In this document: piece after piece, positions 9,037-54,237 of the stretch | Layout: each line of letters opens with the position of its first letter | Position numbering within the stretch: the stretch's first letter is position 1 | The notes under the pieces: model-generated | Told to the model about the DNA's origin: nothing | What the model saw: only the letters and a program-made list of their open reading frames with translations | Databases searched by the model: none | DNA from: Candidatus Aenigmatarchaeota archaeon | GTDB taxonomy: Archaea; Aenigmatarchaeota; Aenigmatarchaeia; GW2011-AR5 | Assembly: GCA_016184005.1 (NCBI GenBank) | Contig: JACPDL010000003.1 | Location: forward strand, 380,974-444,973 | DNA length: 64,000 nt | Reading direction: 5' to 3' | Program-made: the position numbers and the translations under genes

Positions 9037-9250
9037 GGGCCTGTAGCTCAGAGCAAATCCCTTTTCTTGGAAGAAAATGTCTTTGCATGTCCCAAAAGAA
9101 CGTGCAGGGATATTACAAGAAGATTTGGGATTGCGAGCAACCTGGTAGTTGCTTTTGATGCAACAGCAAGCACTCGCCTCTATTTCTAGTTGAAAAAGAC
9201 TGGAAAGGGCAATAAGCGAGGAGTCGCGGGTTCGAATCCCGTCGGGCCCA
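9037..9250 (+). tRNA. tRNA, probably Lys (anticodon CUU), interrupted by three introns. Exons are about 9037-9051, 9141-9148, 9169-9181 and 9213-9250.
   Basis: The acceptor stem GGGCCTG/CGGGCCC and T arm GCGGG-TTCGAAT-CCCGT are seen directly. Joining the four exons gives a canonical 74-nt tRNA: GGGCCUG UA GCUC AGCCUGGUA GAGC A CUCGC CUCUUAA GCGAG GAGUC GCGGG UUCGAAU CCCGU CGGGCCC A. Intron 1 (9052-9140) has a perfect BHB central helix GCTC/GAGC. Intron 3 (9182-9212) has the central helix GCCT/GGGC plus a 9-bp distal helix, which places the 5' cut after 9181 and gives anticodon CUU. If the junction is shifted, CAU or CUA become possible. The intron 2 motif is weak. Confidence 0.7.
9054..9110 (+). 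repeat. 57-nt two-hairpin element (copy A), nested inside tRNA-Lys intron 1.
   Basis: The sequence is caaatccc-TTTTCTT-gg-AAGAAAA-...-stem-cccaaaagaac-stem'. It is about 85% identical to copies at 9685-9741 (+) and 43591-43651 (-). Stem positions differ in compensating ways, while the loop cccaaaagaac is conserved. Confidence 0.6.
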
Positions 9251-36769: not shown

Positions 36770-37112
36770 AAGGAGAAAACCTAGGTTTCCTGCAGAGAAC
36801 CTAAGTTCTCTGAGGTCTCAACTCGAGGAAAGCAAAGCTTTCCTGAGTCTTCAGAAACCTTTGGTTTCTGCAAGAAGAGCGAAGCTCTTTGCAGATCTCC
36901 TTTCTAATCCTCATTCCTAATCAAGAATATTATTTTTCTCGCTCAGAAAACAAAGTTTTCTGGCGTCTCAAAGAGCATGGCTCTTTGCAGATTTCCCAAG
37001 GATTTTCTTTTCTCTAAAGGAAGAGGGGTTATCTGCAGAAAGCAAAGCTTTCTGAGATGTCAGAATTGCTTTGCAATTCTGCACATAGGGGAGAAAACGC
37101 AGTTTCTCCCTA
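36770..37112. repeat. Tandem array of about ten different perfect hairpins (6-9-bp AG-rich stems, 3-6-nt loops) filling the aspS-downstream spacer.
   Basis: The hairpins read directly are AAACCTAGGTTT, CAGAGAAC-CTAA-GTTCTCTG, AGGAAAGC-AAA-GCTTTCCT, CAGAAACC-TTT-GGTTTCTG, AAGAGC-GAA-GCTCTT, CAGAAAAC-AAA-GTTTTCTG, CAAAGAGC-ATG-GCTCTTTG, CAGAAAGC-AAA-GCTTTCTG, CAGAATTGC-TTT-GCAATTCTG and GGGAGAAA-ACGCAG-TTTCTCCC. Confidence 0.7.
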
Positions 37113-38461: not shown

Positions 38462-38722
38462 TCACATGTTATAAAAAAGAGTCCAGGAGACTATCCAAGC
38501 AAGGAAGAACGTGGTTACCGGGCTCAGCCACCACTTCTTTTCCTTTTTCACGCTGAAAGCCTTTTTTGCAAGTAATGAAAGGCAAATGAATGCCACGACT
38601 GCGACCGCCAGACTTACAAGCGGCCGGTTCAGCAGAAAGGACACATAACCGGTGACGATACCTGCGAGAACATTCGCAATAGTTACCTTGATTTCTTCGT
38701 CAAAATATTTCATATTCTTCAC
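38462..38722 (-). CDS. Small membrane protein.
   Basis: 86 aa with two or three TM helices. Its start overlaps the rnhB stop (ATGA). Confidence 0.3.
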   Translation of the reverse strand: MKNMKYFDEEIKVTIANVLAGIVTGYVSFLLNRPLVSLAVAVVAFICLSLLAKKAFSVKKEKKWWLSPVTTFFLAWIVSWTLFYNM

Positions 38723-39418
38723 TCAGTCCTGCTTATGAAGCTCATTACATTGCTTTGCTCTTTTTCTTTTTTCATCAATGTGGCCGTTATCCAGGACTTC
38801 CTTACAATGTCCGGGAAGTCTTTGTTATCTTGTAGCCAATTCTTTAAAAACGCTATAGTGCGTTCGTCGGAAGTGTAACCGGAGCCGAAGAAGCCGTATT
38901 TATGATGAAGCTTGCTTATTTCCGCGTCGCGATGAACCTTGGCAATTATCGAGGCTGCGCCGACCTCGGGGTATTTCTTGTCGGCAAAATTCTCCGCTAC
39001 CAGTTCAAACCGGGTGTGCTTGAGCCTGCAAAGGACCTTTTCCCTGAACCTTTTTGTATTTGCTTCTGGCGCATCGATCACCGCTTTTCCGGGGCAAAGC
39101 AGGTCTATCATCTGCTGCATGCGCTCTATCTCAATCCTGTTAAGATTGGTTTCCGTTCTTAATTTGTCTATTTCCTGCGGCGATATGGACAGCACAACAA
39201 GATCTTCAGCCATCTTCTTCAGCCTGGGCACGAGGCTTTCCCTTTTCTCAGGCGTAAGTTGCTTTGAGTCTTTGACGCCCAGTTCCCTTAGCTCTCCAAT
39301 CTTGCCTTCCTTCACAAGATAGCCGCACATCACAAGCGGGCCGATGACAGGTCCTAACGGCAAGTGAAACTAAATTTCACTTTCTACCGGCTTCATCGAT
39401 ACCCAAAACATTTCTCAA
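38719..39418 (-). CDS. rnhB: Ribonuclease HII interrupted by a 28-nt BHB intron. Exon 1 runs from about 39384 to a TTG start (39404-39406 or 39416-39418). The intron is 39356..39383. Exon 2 is 38719..39355.
   Basis: The ORF-track ORF starts with TTG at LPLGPVIGPLV and lacks the catalytic DEAGRG motif. Immediately upstream, in another frame, lies GGT ATC GAT GAA GCC GGT AGA (GIDEAGR). Removing 28 nt (A-AAGTGAAA-TTTAG-TTTCACTT-GCCG-TT) joins the two pieces as GIDEAGR-GPVIGPLV, the canonical RNase HII N-terminus. The downstream motifs IDAPE, ADKKYPEVGAASIIAK and GSGYTSD are intact. Confidence 0.7.
39356..39383 (-). ncRNA. 28-nt bulge-helix-bulge intron inside the rnhB coding region.
   Basis: The central 4-bp helix is CGGT (exon 1 end) paired with GCCG (intron). 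Each side has a 3-nt bulge (AG|A and TT|A), with cuts after the second bulge nucleotide. The distal helix is 8 bp, AAGTGAAA/TTTCACTT, with loop TTTAG. The architecture matches the tRNA-Lys intron 1 and tRNA-iMet T-loop intron in this window. Confidence 0.65.
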
Positions 39419-40431
39419 ATCACTATCACCTCTTTATCTATAGGTAACTTGTTCCATAAGTATTGTTTTTGTTGTATTAATTTCAATCTCTGCATTTCGT
39501 CGAGTCTCTTTTTTGCAGCTTTCCAGTTTACATCTAATAGTTTAGCAATTTCGCTTGTTTTACATGGGATTTCAAGAAGTTGTAGTATTTCTGACTTTCT
39601 TTGGGAAATAATAATCATATTCAAGTCTGATCTAATCCAGTAATCTCTACTAAGACATCTATAATTTGTAATTTTACCTTCTCTTTTTAATGCTGTTAAG
39701 TGATCTTGCAGAGTAGCTTGTTTTCGATTAAAAATTATAGAAAGTTCTTTGCTAGTTACAGGCTTTGAAAGGTATTGTAAAATATTATTTCTGATATAAT
39801 TTGACGGATAGTGAATTTCTTTGAAAGATTTCCAAGTAGCTAAGAACTTAGCTCTTTTATCTGGATGCAAAACAAATAAATTATATTTATAAAATTTTTC
39901 CCAATTACTCCAACCAGTAATTACATAGGCACGTTCACGTGTGGAAAAGGTGGATTTTATATCAAGATATTTTAGTATTTTATCTATCAACTCTATCTTT
40001 TCTTTTTGAGCAATTCTTATTGTTCTGTTAGAATGAACTCCTGATTTTATATTGCCTTCTCCTGCAAAAAATCCTTTCAGTACGGGAACAAAATATTTTT
40101 CCTGTGATGTAATTTTAGATACTATTTTTCTCCATTTTATTACATCTTTAGTATTCGCATAACGCAAAATGTGATATGGTTTTCTAGCTCTAATATCTTT
40201 ATAGAGTTGGGCTCTGCAATTTCTTAACTTCAATGATTGACCACCATTAGGTGAATAAGTATAAAGTCTGAATTTATTTTTAGGAAATATTTTTGAAAGT
40301 GTTTGATAGAATAGCTTGACAAGTAATTCACAATTATTTGTAAAAGTTATTTCTCTAATTGTTTTATCATCTCCTTCAGCAATCCAAAGTCCGACACATT
40401 CTGCTAATCTATTGGACCAATTATCTGTCAT
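39415..40431 (-). CDS. Free-standing double-motif LAGLIDADG homing endonuclease with a C-terminal winged-helix domain.
   Basis: 338 aa. The two LAGLIDADG-like motifs are ECVGLWIAEGD and LKGFFAGEGNI. A C-terminal HTH (SEIAKLLDVNWKAAKKRLDEM) follows. The gene is AT-rich (about 30% GC), unlike its neighbours. Confidence 0.6.
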   Translation of the reverse strand: MTDNWSNRLAECVGLWIAEGDDKTIREITFTNNCELLVKLFYQTLSKIFPKNKFRLYTYSPNGGQSLKLRNCRAQLYKDIRARKPYHILRYANTKDVIKWRKIVSKITSQEKYFVPVLKGFFAGEGNIKSGVHSNRTIRIAQKEKIELIDKILKYLDIKSTFSTRERAYVITGWSNWEKFYKYNLFVLHPDKRAKFLATWKSFKEIHYPSNYIRNNILQYLSKPVTSKELSIIFNRKQATLQDHLTALKREGKITNYRCLSRDYWIRSDLNMIIISQRKSEILQLLEIPCKTSEIAKLLDVNWKAAKKRLDEMQRLKLIQQKQYLWNKLPIDKEVIVI

Positions 40432-40540
40432 CAGTCTATAATTCTATATTTAGAGCTATAAAATTATCTGTAGTAAAGAAACTAGAACTTTACTGAAGTA
40501 ACTCATCAATTAGAATAAATACAGCGTTTTAAAAGAAGAG

Positions 40541-40798
40541 CTATCTTCCGTCGCGTGTAATGATTCGTCCCCTATAGGAATTGTTTACTGGAACAGGAAC
40601 CGGTACGGGCGAGAGTGCATATCCCATGCGTTCCAATATTGAACCAAGATATCCGCCTTTCTTGAAGGCGTGATGCAGTTGTAATGCAAGTCTTGGATCA
40701 GAAGTAAGTTCCTGCAAGCTATGTGGCTGTGGATAATGCCTCATTACTATTCTATTAATGAAATAACTATTTATTTCTACGATTAAAATTCCTGCCAT
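40541..40798 (-). CDS. Hypothetical protein.
   Basis: 85-aa ORF between the LAGLIDADG genes. It has a Pro-Val repeat (PVPVPVPV). Low confidence that it is real. Confidence 0.25.
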   Translation of the reverse strand: MAGILIVEINSYFINRIVMRHYPQPHSLQELTSDPRLALQLHHAFKKGGYLGSILERMGYALSPVPVPVPVNNSYRGRIITRDGR

Positions 40799-40831
40799 TT
40801 ATAAACATTTGCTCCCATTTGTTATTGCTAT

Positions 40832-40968
40832 AGCGGAGTGGAGCATTGATTTTAGAAATTTCTATAATCACTCGAAGCCTGGAGTGCTCGTCGGGCCCAT
40901 AACCCGAAGGCCAGAGGTTCAAAAACAAGTCACAAAAATGGGACTTGTGGAATTTCCTCTCTCCGCTA
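40832..40968 (+). tRNA. Initiator tRNA-Met (anticodon CAU) with two non-canonical introns, one in the D arm (about 31-34 nt) and one in the T loop (40924-40954).
   Basis: It has an A1:U72 acceptor pair (AGCGGAG/CTCCGCT, discriminator A). The anticodon stem TCGGG/CCCGA has three consecutive G:C pairs. The anticodon loop is CCCATAA (CAU). The T stem AGAGG/CCTCT is split by a 31-nt insert with the BHB layout A-ACAAGTC-loop-GACTTGT-GGAA-TT (central helix TTCA/GGAA, 3 of 4 pairs). The D stem GAGC/GCTC is separated by about 41 nt that includes the hairpin GATT-T-TAGAAATTTCTA-TA-ATC. The exact D-arm junction is ambiguous. Confidence 0.7.
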
Positions 40969-46127: not shown

Positions 46128-46170
46128 CCTAACTTTATGACCAGCGAATATTAATAAAAGTTCCGCTGCG

Positions 46171-54113: not shown

Positions 54114-54237
54114 TGCTCTCGGCGGGATTTGAACCCGCGTCCGCGGCGATCTCCAGTTTTTCCCCGAGGGCTTTTGCGCCTCAGCGGAAAAGGGCTCTGA
54201 GAGGCCACTATCCTTGACCGGGCTAGACTACGAGAGC
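54114..54237 (-). tRNA. tRNA-Glu (anticodon CUC) with a 49-nt canonical 37/38 intron (54149-54197).
   Basis: The acceptor stem is GCTCTCG/CGAGAGC with discriminator A. The D arm is GTCT-AGCCCGGTCAA-GGAT. The anticodon stem is GTGGC/GCCGC and the loop is CUCUCA|C. The T arm is GCGGG-TTCAAAT-CCCGC. The intron's BHB central helix is CTCT/GGAG with bulges CA|G and AT|C. Confidence 0.75.

Follow-up and report, generated by a model that had tools for sequence, protein, structure and literature searches.

A putative bulge-helix-bulge intron at the active-site codons of archaeal rnhB and its association with a LAGLIDADG gene

Background

Archaeal rRNA introns of the bulge-helix-bulge (BHB) type encode LAGLIDADG homing endonucleases, an example being I-DmoI from the 23S rRNA intron of Desulfurococcus mobilis. 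A BHB intron is also reportedly present in a protein-coding transcript, the cbf5 pre-mRNA of Crenarchaeota (Watanabe 2002; Yoshinari 2006). The cbf5 introns are 16–44 nt in length, most have been described as unconventional, and their origin has been called unclear (Yokobori 2009, PMC2738675); they are cleaved after the second bulge nucleotide (PMC2738675). In Haloferax volcanii a BHB intron is located in the 5' UTR of the HVO_1309 mRNA (PMC7714728). The preliminary description of the DNA studied here had called BHB introns in mRNAs rare, and this agrees with the searchable literature through a 2025 paper, which offers only cbf5 (coding sequence, Crenarchaeota) and the Haloferax 5' UTR. No paper linking rnhB, LAGLIDADG genes and introns was found in that literature.

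Homing in trans has been described in phages, where the endonuclease F-CphI is associated with the psbA intron of cyanophage S-PM2, and mobE with the nrdB intron of T4; in these cases the site recognised by the nuclease is the one at which the intron is inserted (PMC3984707, PMC6083498, PMC2790892).

The split rnhB reading frame

The stretch analysed, referred to below as the window, is 64 kb in length, belongs to an Aenigmarchaeota (DPANN) archaeon and carries a gene for RNase HII (rnhB) on its minus strand. As first reported, the rnhB ORF begins at a TTG and is devoid of DEAGRG, and GIDEAGR is coded upstream in a different frame. The mechanical ORF is 38719..39363 and reads MPLGPVIGP...; the upstream piece runs from the TTG at 39418 to GGT AG at 39384. 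The gap between the two pieces was correctly given as 28 nt (39383..39356, AAAGTGAAATTTAGTTTCACTTGCCGTT), and excision of 39356-39383 from the minus strand does join ...GIDEAGR to GPVIGPLV... in frame. The elements of the gene are:

39384..39418, minus strand: rnhB exon 1, with a TTG start, L/M-R-N-V-L-G-I-D-E-A-G and the first two bases, AG, of an Arg codon
38719..39355, minus strand: rnhB exon 2, from the third base of the Arg codon to the stop codon
39425..39432, minus strand: Shine-Dalgarno-like GAGGTGAT, 6 nt 5' of the rnhB TTG and within the last codons (KEVIVI*) of the upstream ORF, as read from the sequence

Splicing in silico gives an open frame of 223 codons (LRNVLGIDEAGRGPVIGPLV...), the product of which matches positions 1–198 of the 199 in the Pfam RNase_HII profile (E=1.9e-45); residues 1–12 of this protein were placed on exon 1 by tblastn. 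The predicted junction in the spliced RNA is ...GCCGGTAG joined directly to AGGACCTG..., without the 28 nt, and the predicted junction peptide is GIDEAGRGPVIGPLV. Without splicing the frame ends after GIDEAGRK*, i.e. after 13 codons, and the unspliced mRNA cannot give active RNase HII. Interrupted genes of this kind are mis-annotated by gene callers as an N-terminally truncated RNase HII lacking the catalytic Asp-Glu. In the tetranucleotide TTGA, the TTG start of rnhB overlaps the TGA with which the upstream ORF ends. No second rnhB was found within the 64-kb window; a copy beyond it cannot be excluded.

Structure of the insert

The insert had been said to fold with a 4-bp central helix H (CGGU/GCCG), two 3-nt bulges at the junctions and an 8-bp hairpin. 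This geometry was found again, the hairpin comprising 8–9 bp:

39356..39383, minus strand: 28-nt BHB intron (AAAGUGAAAUUUAGUUUCACUUGCCGUU), the removal of which restores the frame and DEAGRGP; fits the 3-4-3 BHB template
39386..39389, minus strand: 5' strand of central helix H, CGGU, in the Ala-Gly codons GCC GGT; pairs with GCCG at 39358-39361
39358..39361, minus strand: 3' strand of central helix H, GCCG, inside the intron
39383..39385, minus strand: 5' bulge AGA, with the predicted cut between 39384 and 39383
39355..39357, minus strand: 3' bulge UUA, with the predicted cut between 39356 and 39355
39362..39382, minus strand: intron hairpin h', AAGUGAAA(U)/(G)UUUCACUU, 8–9 bp, abutting H
39393..39398, minus strand: 5' strand of a distal exon-exon helix, CGAUGA, in the I-D-E codons; extended by UGGGU at 39401-39405 (MFE fold)
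39342..39347, minus strand: 3' strand of the distal exon-exon helix, UCAUCG, in the V-I-G codons; extended by GCCCG at 39337-39341 (MFE fold)

The cbf5 cut rule, applied in silico to this structure, releases exactly 39356-39383. The helix adjoining the 3' bulge is only 1–2 bp long (C-G, then mostly G-G mismatches) and is followed by an internal loop and then by the exon-exon helix of 6+5 bp. Strictly, the rnhB motif is of the relaxed HBh' type with a distal exon-exon helix, and not clearly a strict hBHBh'. According to the literature, relaxed HBh'-type motifs require a tRNA splicing endonuclease (EndA) of broad specificity; an endA probe of the 64-kb window was negative.

The fold of the single window sequence was not significant against chance (z=-1.56), and a motif-only BHB scan of the window was non-specific, with 740 matches vs 559–693 in shuffles. 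It is the comparative data that decide the BHB reading.

tRNA genes and other candidate introns

Two genes bear out the earlier statement that the window has tRNA introns built in the same way:

9037-9250: tRNA-Lys(CUU) with three introns, the third of 31 nt with a 4-bp H, 3-nt bulges and a 9-bp hairpin
54114-54237: tRNA-Glu(CUC) with one intron

ARAGORN at its default settings reported no tRNA and Rfam one; the multi-intron tRNA-Lys was recovered only by a BHB scan with in-silico splicing. Judged by these predicted genes, the host of this DNA needs BHB splicing, non-canonical positions included. A second mRNA intron was not found in the window by a BHB scan with an ORF-restoration filter, which gave rnhB and a few further candidates, two of them inspected. 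The segments 46136-46169 and 1286-1310 were rejected as mRNA introns on the ground that their upstream 'exons' translate to junk. Membership of a repeat/MITE or mobile mini-hairpin family was likewise discarded, the hairpin occurring once in the window.

Inserts at the same site in relatives

Inserts at the same rnhB codon were observed in diverged DPANN genes, 16 distinct ones in all (the window and 15 other loci), measuring 18, 21, 28, 29, 30 or 35 nt. Every insert breaks the frame or has in-frame stops. All fit the 3-4-3 BHB template; at L031 and L215 the register is displaced by 2 nt, with no change in the resulting mRNA. The 5' bulge is AGA throughout (16/16 loci); the 3' bulge is UUA, UGA, UAA or AGA at the 14 loci with the register of the window, and AGG or AAG at the +2-register loci L031 and L215.

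The pairing is maintained through compensatory change. H is fully paired in 14/14 aligned sequences, and two of its four pairs have changed on both sides (C-G to A-U; U-G to C-G, U-A or G-C), as have eight of the nine pairs of h'. RNAalifold, run independently, recovered H, the bulge and h'; compensation was seen at 10 of the 12 pairs. Paired cells amount to 92.2% in the alignment vs 81% in shuffles (0/500 reach the observed value) and 30–54% in slid controls. The number of pairs changed on both sides, 11, was again matched by 0/500 shuffles.

Exon synonymous sites are constrained in interrupted alleles only. The exon-exon duplex has a mean of -15.0 kcal/mol in 15 interrupted alleles vs -9.1 in 76 uninterrupted ones (Mann-Whitney p=1e-6). 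Val is coded by GTC in 12/15 interrupted vs 11/76 uninterrupted alleles, Ile by ATC in 8/15 vs 7/76, and the codons AGA, GCC and GG(T/C) are used by interrupted alleles without exception.

Approximately 16% of the 120 closest rnhB homologs appear to be interrupted. A tree test required no fewer than 16 changes of state to account for 20 interrupted tips (18.8 expected at random), the interrupted status of 13 of these 20 proteins being based on truncated gene calls only. A DNA-pattern scan of metagenomes returned, among the matches listed, mostly chance hits and four real rnhB junctions; of the latter, again among the matches listed, L096, L153 and L161 are new and L194 repeats the sequence of L005/L006. 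The occurrence of the inserts in independent assemblies (NCBI, JGI, ENA, Logan) excludes an assembly artefact.

Comparison shows the putative rnhB intron to be conserved in DPANN rnhB, with constraint on its structure and a patchy phylogenetic distribution. The initial interpretation as a BHB intron is upheld by the 16 same-codon BHB inserts, the covariation, the intact spliced ORFs and the synonymous constraint on the exons; splicing itself is inferred. In the absence of transcript, proteomic or enzymatic data, we consider it likely that the insert is a spliced BHB intron which is mobile at the DNA level.

Recent acquisition by recombination

The preliminary description had stated that an intact, uninterrupted rnhB in close relatives, coupled with further inactivating changes in the window copy, would refute the intron. 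The first half of this was encountered, as the closest relatives (97% protein identity) have an uninterrupted rnhB; the second was not, the window copy being without further inactivating change. The uninterrupted L003-type allele reads ...ATTGATGAAGCCGGCCGCGGCCCGGTGATAGGG..., and from about 39328 downstream exon 2 of the window shows 96.6% nucleotide identity to the uninterrupted L003, L004 and L010. Homology to these three breaks off at 40526 and picks up again at 39354, and a patch is recognised here:

39329..40525, minus strand: recombinant patch of about 1.2 kb, containing an AT-rich promoter-like leader, the LAGLIDADG ORF, exon 1, the intron and the first 22–27 nt of exon 2

This patch stands in place of 80 nt of the uninterrupted allele. 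In the spliced coding sequence, columns 9–57 (within the first 60 columns) contain 15 sites matching the intron-bearing L001 vs 1 matching L003; over columns 63–672 the relation is reversed, with 89 sites matching L003 vs 8 matching L001. The right-hand recombination border thus falls 22–27 nt past the intron, and the left border is intergenic. The mosaic reveals a recent acquisition of the window intron by recombination from a lineage resembling L001. Neither this mosaic, which shows mobility at the DNA level, nor the LAGLIDADG gene next to exon 1 had featured in the preliminary description.

The sequence ATTGATGAG at the left border of the patch was considered as a vestigial rnhB 5' end and rejected, its alignment not being significant (16% of shuffles equal the score). 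No remnant of an rnhB 5' end was found upstream of the other intact nuclease genes.

The LAGLIDADG gene upstream of rnhB

Most of the patch is taken up by the ORF that overlaps the rnhB start:

39415..40431, minus strand: free-standing LAGLIDADG (I-DmoI-like) and tandem winged-helix protein of 338 aa, a candidate homing endonuclease

Searches of this ORF against Pfam, NCBIfam and PDB sequences yielded sub-threshold matches only, and a fold search was needed. Its AlphaFold model (pLDDT 93.4) meets the two-domain alpha-beta-beta-alpha-beta-beta-alpha LAGLIDADG fold, and the best Foldseek matches were to I-DmoI, bI3 maturase (the top match) and E-DreI, with a probability of 1.00 and target TM values of 0.63–0.66. 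The two LAGLIDADG motifs are GLWIAEGD and GFFAGEGN; their acidic residues are present in 118/120 and 119/120 homologs, E19 being invariant and E125 occurring in at least 90%. With Pfam PF14528 (LAGLIDADG_3) the protein scored 21.4 bits, a narrow miss of the 22.5 cut-off, and several homologs possess precomputed matches to this family; the miss is outweighed by the fold and the motifs. Proteins of this type are annotated as transcriptional regulators in database sources.

The gene is missing from the 96.6%-identical relatives. Homologs lie directly 5' of rnhB in 5/5 sampled contexts, four of them with the intron. Intact nuclease genes adjoin an intron-bearing rnhB in the window and at L210, L211/212, L213 and L215; decayed remnants adjoin rnhB at L153 and L031, and many family members are fragmentary. 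The GAGGTGAT/KEV(I/V)V(L/I)* ending is shared by many members of the family and by L210, L211, L031 and L215. A profile HMM detected the nuclease family at 3/12 independently found interrupted loci vs 0/76 uninterrupted ones (Fisher p about 0.002). At L001, the closest intron donor type seen, no nuclease gene was present in the 233 nt available upstream.

Proposed mechanism and alternative explanations

In the pre-mRNA, the Ala-Gly codons (CGGU) would pair with GCCG at the 3' end of the intron to form the 4-bp central helix. The two 3-nt bulges, AG-A and UU-A with the hyphen marking the cut, would expose the splice sites, and the core would be flanked by the 9-bp hairpin and the exon-exon helix. 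EndA is inferred to cut after the second nucleotide of each bulge, and an RtcB-type ligase to join the exons, whereby the Arg codon AG-A and the metal-binding DEAGRGP would be rebuilt.

At the DNA level, the 338-aa I-DmoI-like protein is inferred to act as a free-standing homing endonuclease that cleaves uninterrupted alleles of rnhB in or near the DEAGRGP-coding sequence. Repair would then carry the intron across along with the nuclease gene. The rnhB gene would stay functional thanks to the intron, which would probably also divide the nuclease target; after fixation, the nuclease gene would decay and be lost, leaving orphan introns. The whole would be a case of collaborative (trans) homing, as in phage group I introns. 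Both the activity and the target of the nuclease are inferred, and whether it targets the intron site is a nearly even question that we cannot settle in favour of the proposal, as co-conversion would also be expected if its site were nearby and unrelated to the intron. It is with the same reserve, and only as a tentative proposal, that the BHB intron and the I-DmoI-like nuclease are regarded here as a two-part mobile element for the active-site 5' end of rnhB across DPANN, in which the intron blocks re-cleavage.

The intron could be real and spliced by EndA, and its link to the LAGLIDADG gene nevertheless passive, with the nuclease targeting the start of rnhB or a site upstream (intronless homing) and the intron hitchhiking or pre-dating it. 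We think this rather unlikely, yet the position of the nuclease gene outside the intron and the intergenic left border of the patch are what it would lead one to expect; L214 has a nuclease homolog beside an uninterrupted rnhB (with a divergent junction), most interrupted loci are without a nuclease gene, and co-conversion of flanking markers is general in homing (PMC3984707). It accounts less well for the presence of the intron at 7/8 loci with an intact or remnant nuclease gene, where the background level is about 16–20% interrupted genes, and for a right border so soon after the intron, in keeping with a break near the intron site. At L031, moreover, the nuclease gene is joined to a second copy of the rnhB 5' end, the fusion point lying exactly behind GAT GAG and 8–10 nt from the intron site, and P0208, known as protein only, begins with the same LGIDE fusion.

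An improbable explanation is that the LAGLIDADG-winged-helix protein is no nuclease at all, and instead a domesticated maturase-like or regulatory factor for rnhB, binding for example the pre-mRNA BHB or the promoter. The top Foldseek match to bI3 maturase, the two C-terminal winged-helix domains with the regulator annotation in the sources, and the overlap of its stop codon with the rnhB start, which suggests co-expression, are all compatible with such a role. To our knowledge, however, BHB splicing needs no maturase in any known system. The near invariance of the acidic residues in both LAGLIDADG motifs speaks against such a role, as does the presence or absence of the gene between 96.6%-identical genomes with a co-converted flank; the decayed copies at L153 and L031 and the many fragments are more readily explained by a selfish homing cycle than by a host factor.

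That the window rnhB is a pseudogene freshly disrupted by a random or mobile hairpin, the alternative raised in the preliminary description, is hardly credible and is contradicted by the comparative data. The uninterrupted state of the closest relatives (97% identity) and the termination of the unspliced frame after 13 codons could be cited for it. There is, however, no other lesion in the gene, the hairpin is single in the window, and the exon synonymous sites are co-adapted to the structure. With same-codon inserts and compensatory changes across 16 diverged genes, the spliced ORF is intact in 14/14 genes complete on their contigs (dN/dS 0.11–0.29), and because spliced ORFs are intact and under purifying selection the window rnhB is not regarded as a pseudogene.

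Skipping of the insert during translation, by programmed bypassing or frameshifting as in T4 gene 60 with no removal from the RNA, can be virtually ruled out: a stop codon and a hairpin directly after the last exon-1 codon bear a superficial likeness to a bypass signal, but the sequence offers no matched take-off and landing codons that would give DEAGRGP, the inserts of 18–35 nt fall in all three phases, and the conserved features are those read by EndA (the 4-bp exon-intron helix and two 3-nt bulges at a fixed distance), the exon-intron helix H showing covariation that bypassing does not require.

Significance

With splicing of the kind inferred here, organisms with minimal genomes rely on their tRNA splicing machinery to produce RNase HII. 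The linkage to a nuclease gene and the acquisition between 96.6%-identical genomes render the origin and spread of ORF-less BHB introns testable. Should the two-part element prove true, this would be the first time that a mechanism of mobility has been shown for BHB introns without an ORF. It would also be the equivalent, in archaea and with splicing by proteins, of collaborative homing in phages, and would serve as a model for the colonisation of new sites in tRNA and mRNA genes by BHB introns.

Comparison with known systems

On the evidence of sequence comparison, rnhB adds a second coding-sequence case of a BHB intron, in another gene and another superphylum, and a widespread one. Like that of cbf5, the rnhB intron is short and ORF-less and is situated within a coding sequence (18–35 nt vs 16–44 nt in cbf5). 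In both, the insertion point is within or beside a codon for a catalytic residue, the predicted cuts fall between the second and third bulge nucleotides, and gain and loss among relatives are patchy. The two differ in that rnhB introns occur in DPANN and cbf5 introns in Crenarchaeota, with no sequence relation between them; the 3-4-3 BHB core of rnhB is regular, in contrast to most cbf5 introns, which have been described as unconventional; and no mobility agent is known for cbf5, whereas rnhB is linked to a LAGLIDADG gene and its recombinant acquisition is visible. In the way it works the rnhB intron is like that of cbf5, yet the two cases are independent.

HVO_1309 resembles rnhB in that the substrate of the tRNA splicing endonuclease is an mRNA and neither a tRNA nor an rRNA; its intron lies in an untranslated leader and interrupts no frame, and neither mobility nor a comparative distribution has been reported. 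The BHB introns of archaeal tRNA genes, the multi-intron tRNAs of DPANN and Crenarchaeota included, share the motif and presumably the enzymes, the third intron of the window tRNA-Lys having the same architecture. In rnhB, by contrast, the host RNA is an mRNA whose exon strands are codons, so that structure and protein are co-constrained.

The rRNA intron encoding I-DmoI likewise combines a BHB intron with a monomeric two-motif LAGLIDADG enzyme, and homing with co-conversion is expected of both. The nuclease gene of the window differs in being outside the intron, 5' of the host start, and in having its own C-terminal winged-helix domains; the rnhB intron is far too small for an ORF, and its host gene is protein-coding.

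The arrangement is also similar to phage trans homing, in which a free-standing endonuclease gene lies beside a conserved gene with an ORF-less intron and both move jointly by gene conversion. The phage introns are self-splicing group I introns in all described cases, whereas the rnhB intron would be a protein-spliced BHB without a ribozyme. The phage enzymes are Endo VII-like or HNH, in contrast to the LAGLIDADG protein of the window, which is coded on an archaeal chromosome and has an undetermined target. The rnhB intron and its nuclease would therefore not belong among the phage systems described so far and would represent an analogue from a new class of intron.

Organization of the rnhB gene

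The rnhB (RNase HII) gene is read from the following features.

38719..39363, minus strand: mechanically predicted rnhB ORF, TTG start, reading MPLGPVIGPLVMCGY...
39418 to 39384, minus strand: rnhB exon 1, TTG(39418) AGA AAT GTT TTG GGT ATC GAT GAA GCC GGT AG(39384), encoding L/M-RNVLGIDEAG and two bases of an Arg codon
39383..39356, minus strand: insert of 28 nt, AAAGTGAAATTTAGTTTCACTTGCCGTT
6 nt 5' of the rnhB TTG, minus strand: Shine-Dalgarno-like GAGGTGAT, by sequence reading

These positions confirm the preliminary description, which had noted a TTG-initiated ORF, the GIDEAGR motif upstream in another frame, and a gap of 28 nt between them. The frame of exon 1 differs from that of the downstream ORF and, unspliced, stops two codons on (GIDEAGRK-stop). 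Deletion of 39383..39356 in silico gave a 223-codon frame, LRNVLGIDEAGRGPVIGPLV..., the product of which covers profile positions 1–198 of 199 of Pfam RNase_HII (E=1.9e-45), so that exact excision does restore an in-frame RNase HII start as had been claimed. A second rnhB was not found within the 64-kb window. The original observation is thus confirmed, and its interpretation as a bulge-helix-bulge (BHB) intron is supported and extended by the data that follow.

The BHB motif

39389-39386 with 39361-39358, minus strand: helix H, CGGU (Ala-Gly codons) paired to GCCG (within the insert)
39385-39383, minus strand: 5' bulge AGA, between the strands of H, before the hairpin
39382-39362, minus strand: hairpin h', 8–9 bp, between the 5' bulge and GCCG
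39357-39355, minus strand: 3' bulge UUA, directly after GCCG

In the cbf5 intron the cuts are placed between bulge residues 2 and 3 (PMC2738675), and this rule, applied here, gives exactly 39356-39383; the proposed 4-bp CGGT/GCCG helix and the two 3-nt bulges at the junctions were all found. Since the helix adjoining the 3' bulge is just 1–2 bp, the motif is strictly of the relaxed (HBh'-type) form with a distal exon–exon helix, CGAUGA/UCAUCG plus UGGGU/GCCCG, lying beyond an internal loop in the MFE fold. The z-score of this fold was −1.56, and a strict BHB pattern matched 740 times in the window versus 559–693 times in shuffles; the fold and motif of this single sequence are weak evidence for a BHB.

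Inserts at the same site in relatives

Homologs of the spliced RNase HII are DPANN proteins, mostly from Aenigmarchaeota. Among the best 120, about 19 gene calls were truncated at the junction; several of them start M-PLGPV.. or ..LPLGPV.., the 3' end of the insert being read as coding sequence. DNA was collected for 16 distinct interrupted loci, all of which carry an insert of 18, 21, 28, 29, 30 or 35 nt at the identical position, causing in every case a frame shift or an in-frame stop, and all of which fit a 3-4-3 BHB template. The cut falls within the Arg codon (AG/A) in 14; the other two (L031 and L215) display intron sliding, the BHB register lying 2 nt downstream (AGA G/GN instead of AG/A GGN), which leads to the same mature mRNA because AG is repeated.

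Hairpin sequences differ among lineages with pairing kept. RNAalifold, run blind on a MAFFT alignment, recovered H, a 3-nt bulge and h', with 10 of 12 pairs compensated. The full proposed structure has 92.2% of its cells paired and 11 pairs with double-sided changes. Shuffles gave 81.0% paired cells (0/500 reaching 92.2%) and a partner-sliding control 30–54%. Covariation was observed in H itself: C-G becomes A-U where Ala becomes Ser (TCA), and U-G becomes C-G, U-A or G-C.

Of the interrupted genes, 14 lie wholly within their contigs, and in every one of these the spliced ORF is open over 211–229 codons, counted from the DE motif. Purifying selection was evident in dN/dS values of 0.11–0.29 for interrupted rnhB, with synonymous sites near saturation; judged by their sequences, the interrupted host genes are functional, not dead. 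Exon synonymous sites are constrained in interrupted alleles only, as seen in the use of AGA for Arg (15/15 interrupted, 35/76 uninterrupted), GCC for Ala (12/15, 15/76), GTC for Val (12/15, 11/76) and ATC for Ile (8/15, 7/76), and the exon–exon duplex reaches −15.0 kcal/mol in interrupted versus −9.1 in uninterrupted alleles (p=1e-6).

Translational bypass was rejected, there being no take-off and landing pair that gives DEAGRGP, insert lengths occurring in all phases, and the conserved features being those that the tRNA splicing endonuclease (EndA) measures. The alternative offered in the preliminary description, a pseudogene hit by a mobile mini-hairpin, fails on both counts: the same-site inserts with covariation, the intact spliced ORFs and the dN/dS values rule out a pseudogene, and the hairpin is unique in the window, which excludes a repeated element. 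An assembly artefact is ruled out by independent NCBI, JGI, ENA and Logan assemblies. The insert is, in our judgement, very probably a spliced BHB intron, splicing itself being inferred.

The intergenic region 36851-37065, downstream of an Asp-tRNA-synthetase-like ORF, contains several short segments that are repeated when it is compared with L003 4157-4437; a weak Rfam match to a hairpin, mir-2009, also falls there, its 26 bits being well short of the threshold. These elements may be the "mini-hairpins" of the earlier description.

tRNA introns

54114-54237, minus strand: tRNA-Glu(CUC), by Rfam; intron of 49 nt, placed in the anticodon loop by ARAGORN -i
9037-9250, plus strand: tRNA-Lys(CUU), three introns, located through a BHB scan
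9052-9140, plus strand: tRNA-Lys intron 1, 89 nt, D-loop
9149-9168, plus strand: tRNA-Lys intron 2, 20 nt, D-arm
9182-9212, plus strand: tRNA-Lys intron 3, 31 nt, anticodon loop

Unspliced, the tRNA-Lys gene was missed by default ARAGORN, and Rfam caught its T-arm only (9225-9242); spliced in silico to 74 nt it was called tRNA-Lys(ctt) by ARAGORN. Its third intron is built like that of rnhB, in keeping with the suggestion that tRNA introns of the window share this architecture. From its tRNA genes we infer that the host routinely splices BHB introns. Multi-intron tRNAs with non-canonical positions are associated with broad-specificity endonucleases (PMC5829648). The endA gene was not found in the 64-kb window. 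In the micrarchaeotal locus L215 (GCA_014727935) the LAGLIDADG–rnhB pair is preceded, at a distance of about 1.1 kb, by a gene (1-840) for a 380-aa tRNA splicing endonuclease (tRNA_int_endo_N and tRNA_int_endo), possibly by coincidence.

Acquisition by recombination

The comparison with rnhB of relatives, proposed earlier as a check, showed both states: 16 loci, that of the window included, are interrupted, and the gene is uninterrupted in L003, L004 and L010 (Aenigmatarchaeota MAG RIFCSPHIGHO2_01_FULL_AR5_44_11), which share about 96.6% DNA identity with the window on both sides of rnhB. Homology to these ends at 40526 and restarts at 39354, approximately 1.2 kb in the window taking the place of 80 nt in the uninterrupted allele. 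In the spliced CDS, 15 sites in columns 9–57 match the intron-bearing L001 (an 86% relative) and a single site in the first 60 columns matches L003; from column 63 on, 89 sites match L003 and 8 match L001. The observed mosaic boundary inside rnhB is sharp, and from this switch in agreement it follows that the intron, 35 nt of 5' exon and 22–27 nt of 3' exon came from an L001-like donor; together these segments form the BHB. Presence of the intron shows almost no correlation with the rnhB phylogeny: the 20 interrupted tips need 16 or more changes, where randomly placed tips give 18.8. For 13 of these 20, the interrupted state was read from a truncated gene call alone.

Where the window has 83 nt (40746-40828), L003 (828-1485), L004 and L010 hold a 193-aa LAGLIDADG_3 ORF on the opposite strand, different from the 338-aa ORF of the window, a second endonuclease polymorphism nearby; around rnhB, this lineage appears to gain and lose free-standing LAGLIDADG genes rapidly. 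A short non-coding element at 40829-40905, without an Rfam match, is highly conserved in otherwise diverged relatives (L001 1-23, L008 797-826, L003 763-827 and L011 1043-1106; 86–100% identity).

The LAGLIDADG protein

39415-40431, minus strand: LAGLIDADG ORF, 338 aa, the rest of the recombinant patch; stop codon overlapping the start of rnhB

Sequence searches with this protein gave LAGLIDADG_3 and HTH matches, all sub-threshold. Structural comparison of its AlphaFold model (pLDDT 93.4) gave a match at probability 1.00 (target TM 0.63–0.66) to I-DmoI, a LAGLIDADG homing endonuclease that belongs to a BHB intron of archaeal rRNA; in the model the LAGLIDADG region is followed by two winged-helix domains. 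Of 120 homologs, 118 keep the motif GLWIAEGD and 119 keep GFFAGEGN. This protein family is small: in a set of 1.84 billion representatives it forms 179 clusters (50% identity), many of which are fragments, and it is distributed over several DPANN phyla.

Five homolog contexts were fetched (64, 59, 47, 46 and 43% identity; Aenigmarchaeota-like, Pacearchaeota and Micrarchaeota), with neighbourhoods otherwise unrelated. The gene is directly upstream of rnhB in all five, and the rnhB intron is present in four (L210, L211/212, L213 and L215); in the fifth, L214, rnhB is uninterrupted and its junction sequence, LGLDDAGRGPIIGA, is divergent. Among loci gathered independently of this gene, a profile HMM detected the family in just three, the window, L153 and L031, all of them interrupted (3/12 interrupted versus 0/76 uninterrupted loci). 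In the contexts sampled, the family is dedicated to rnhB. The L153 and L031 copies are decayed through internal deletion, stops and frameshifts. At L031 1009-1290 the 5' end of rnhB is duplicated and fused in frame to the nuclease N-terminus (MKKVLGIDE/); a direct repeat of 21 nt, AAAGTTCTTGGCATAGATGAG, occurs at 1024 and again at 1268. P0208, a homolog known as protein only, begins with a like fusion (LTTILGIDE/). These fusions suggest that integration took place immediately behind the Asp-Glu codons, 8–10 nt from the intron site. The LAGLIDADG gene of L214 (Pacearchaeota GCA_002688335) has an rve-family integrase ORF (1034-1906) as its immediate upstream neighbour.

Proposed mechanism

Direct evidence covers the anatomy of the sequence, its conservation and covariation, purifying selection on the host gene, the mosaic, the adjacency of nuclease gene and rnhB, and the protein fold; the steps below are inferred. 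By established knowledge of BHB splicing, EndA would cut at both bulges and RtcB-type ligation would join the exons, which restores AGA as the Arg codon and with it DEAGRGP. Collaborative (trans) homing in phages is a model for the co-mobility of nuclease and intron (PMC3984707). By analogy, the LAGLIDADG protein would cut uninterrupted rnhB near the intron site, and repair off the occupied allele would copy nuclease gene and intron together; the intron would keep rnhB functional and may split the nuclease target, and later decay of the nuclease gene would leave orphan introns. We lean towards the view that the LAGLIDADG gene mobilises the intron, its nuclease activity being inferred. In the main rival explanation homing occurs likewise, but at a target unrelated to the intron, which merely hitchhikes. 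True collaborative homing, with the intron site as target, can be put forward only tentatively, both target site and activity being inferred from the phage analogy.

Comparison with known introns

Among introns already described, that of cbf5 in Crenarchaeota comes nearest. It measures 16–44 nt, is located at the catalytic Asp codon and is subject to gain and loss; its origin was considered unclear, with descent from endonuclease-bearing introns a speculation of the authors (PMC2738675). Papers from 2018, 2020 and 2025 name cbf5 as the sole coding-sequence example, the 2020 paper adding a 5'UTR BHB in HVO_1309 (PMC7714728). Nothing relevant linking rnhB or RNase HII, LAGLIDADG, Aenigmarchaeota and introns was found in the searchable literature, which agrees with the expectation that a BHB intron in rnhB would be new; subscription journals were poorly covered and an earlier description is possible. 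Unlike the cbf5 intron, that of rnhB occurs in a new gene and a new superphylum, and it differs from known mRNA BHB introns in being partnered with an external candidate homing-endonuclease gene. BHB mRNA introns as a kind are already known; as far as the literature covered shows, one in rnhB of DPANN archaea with such an external gene is new.
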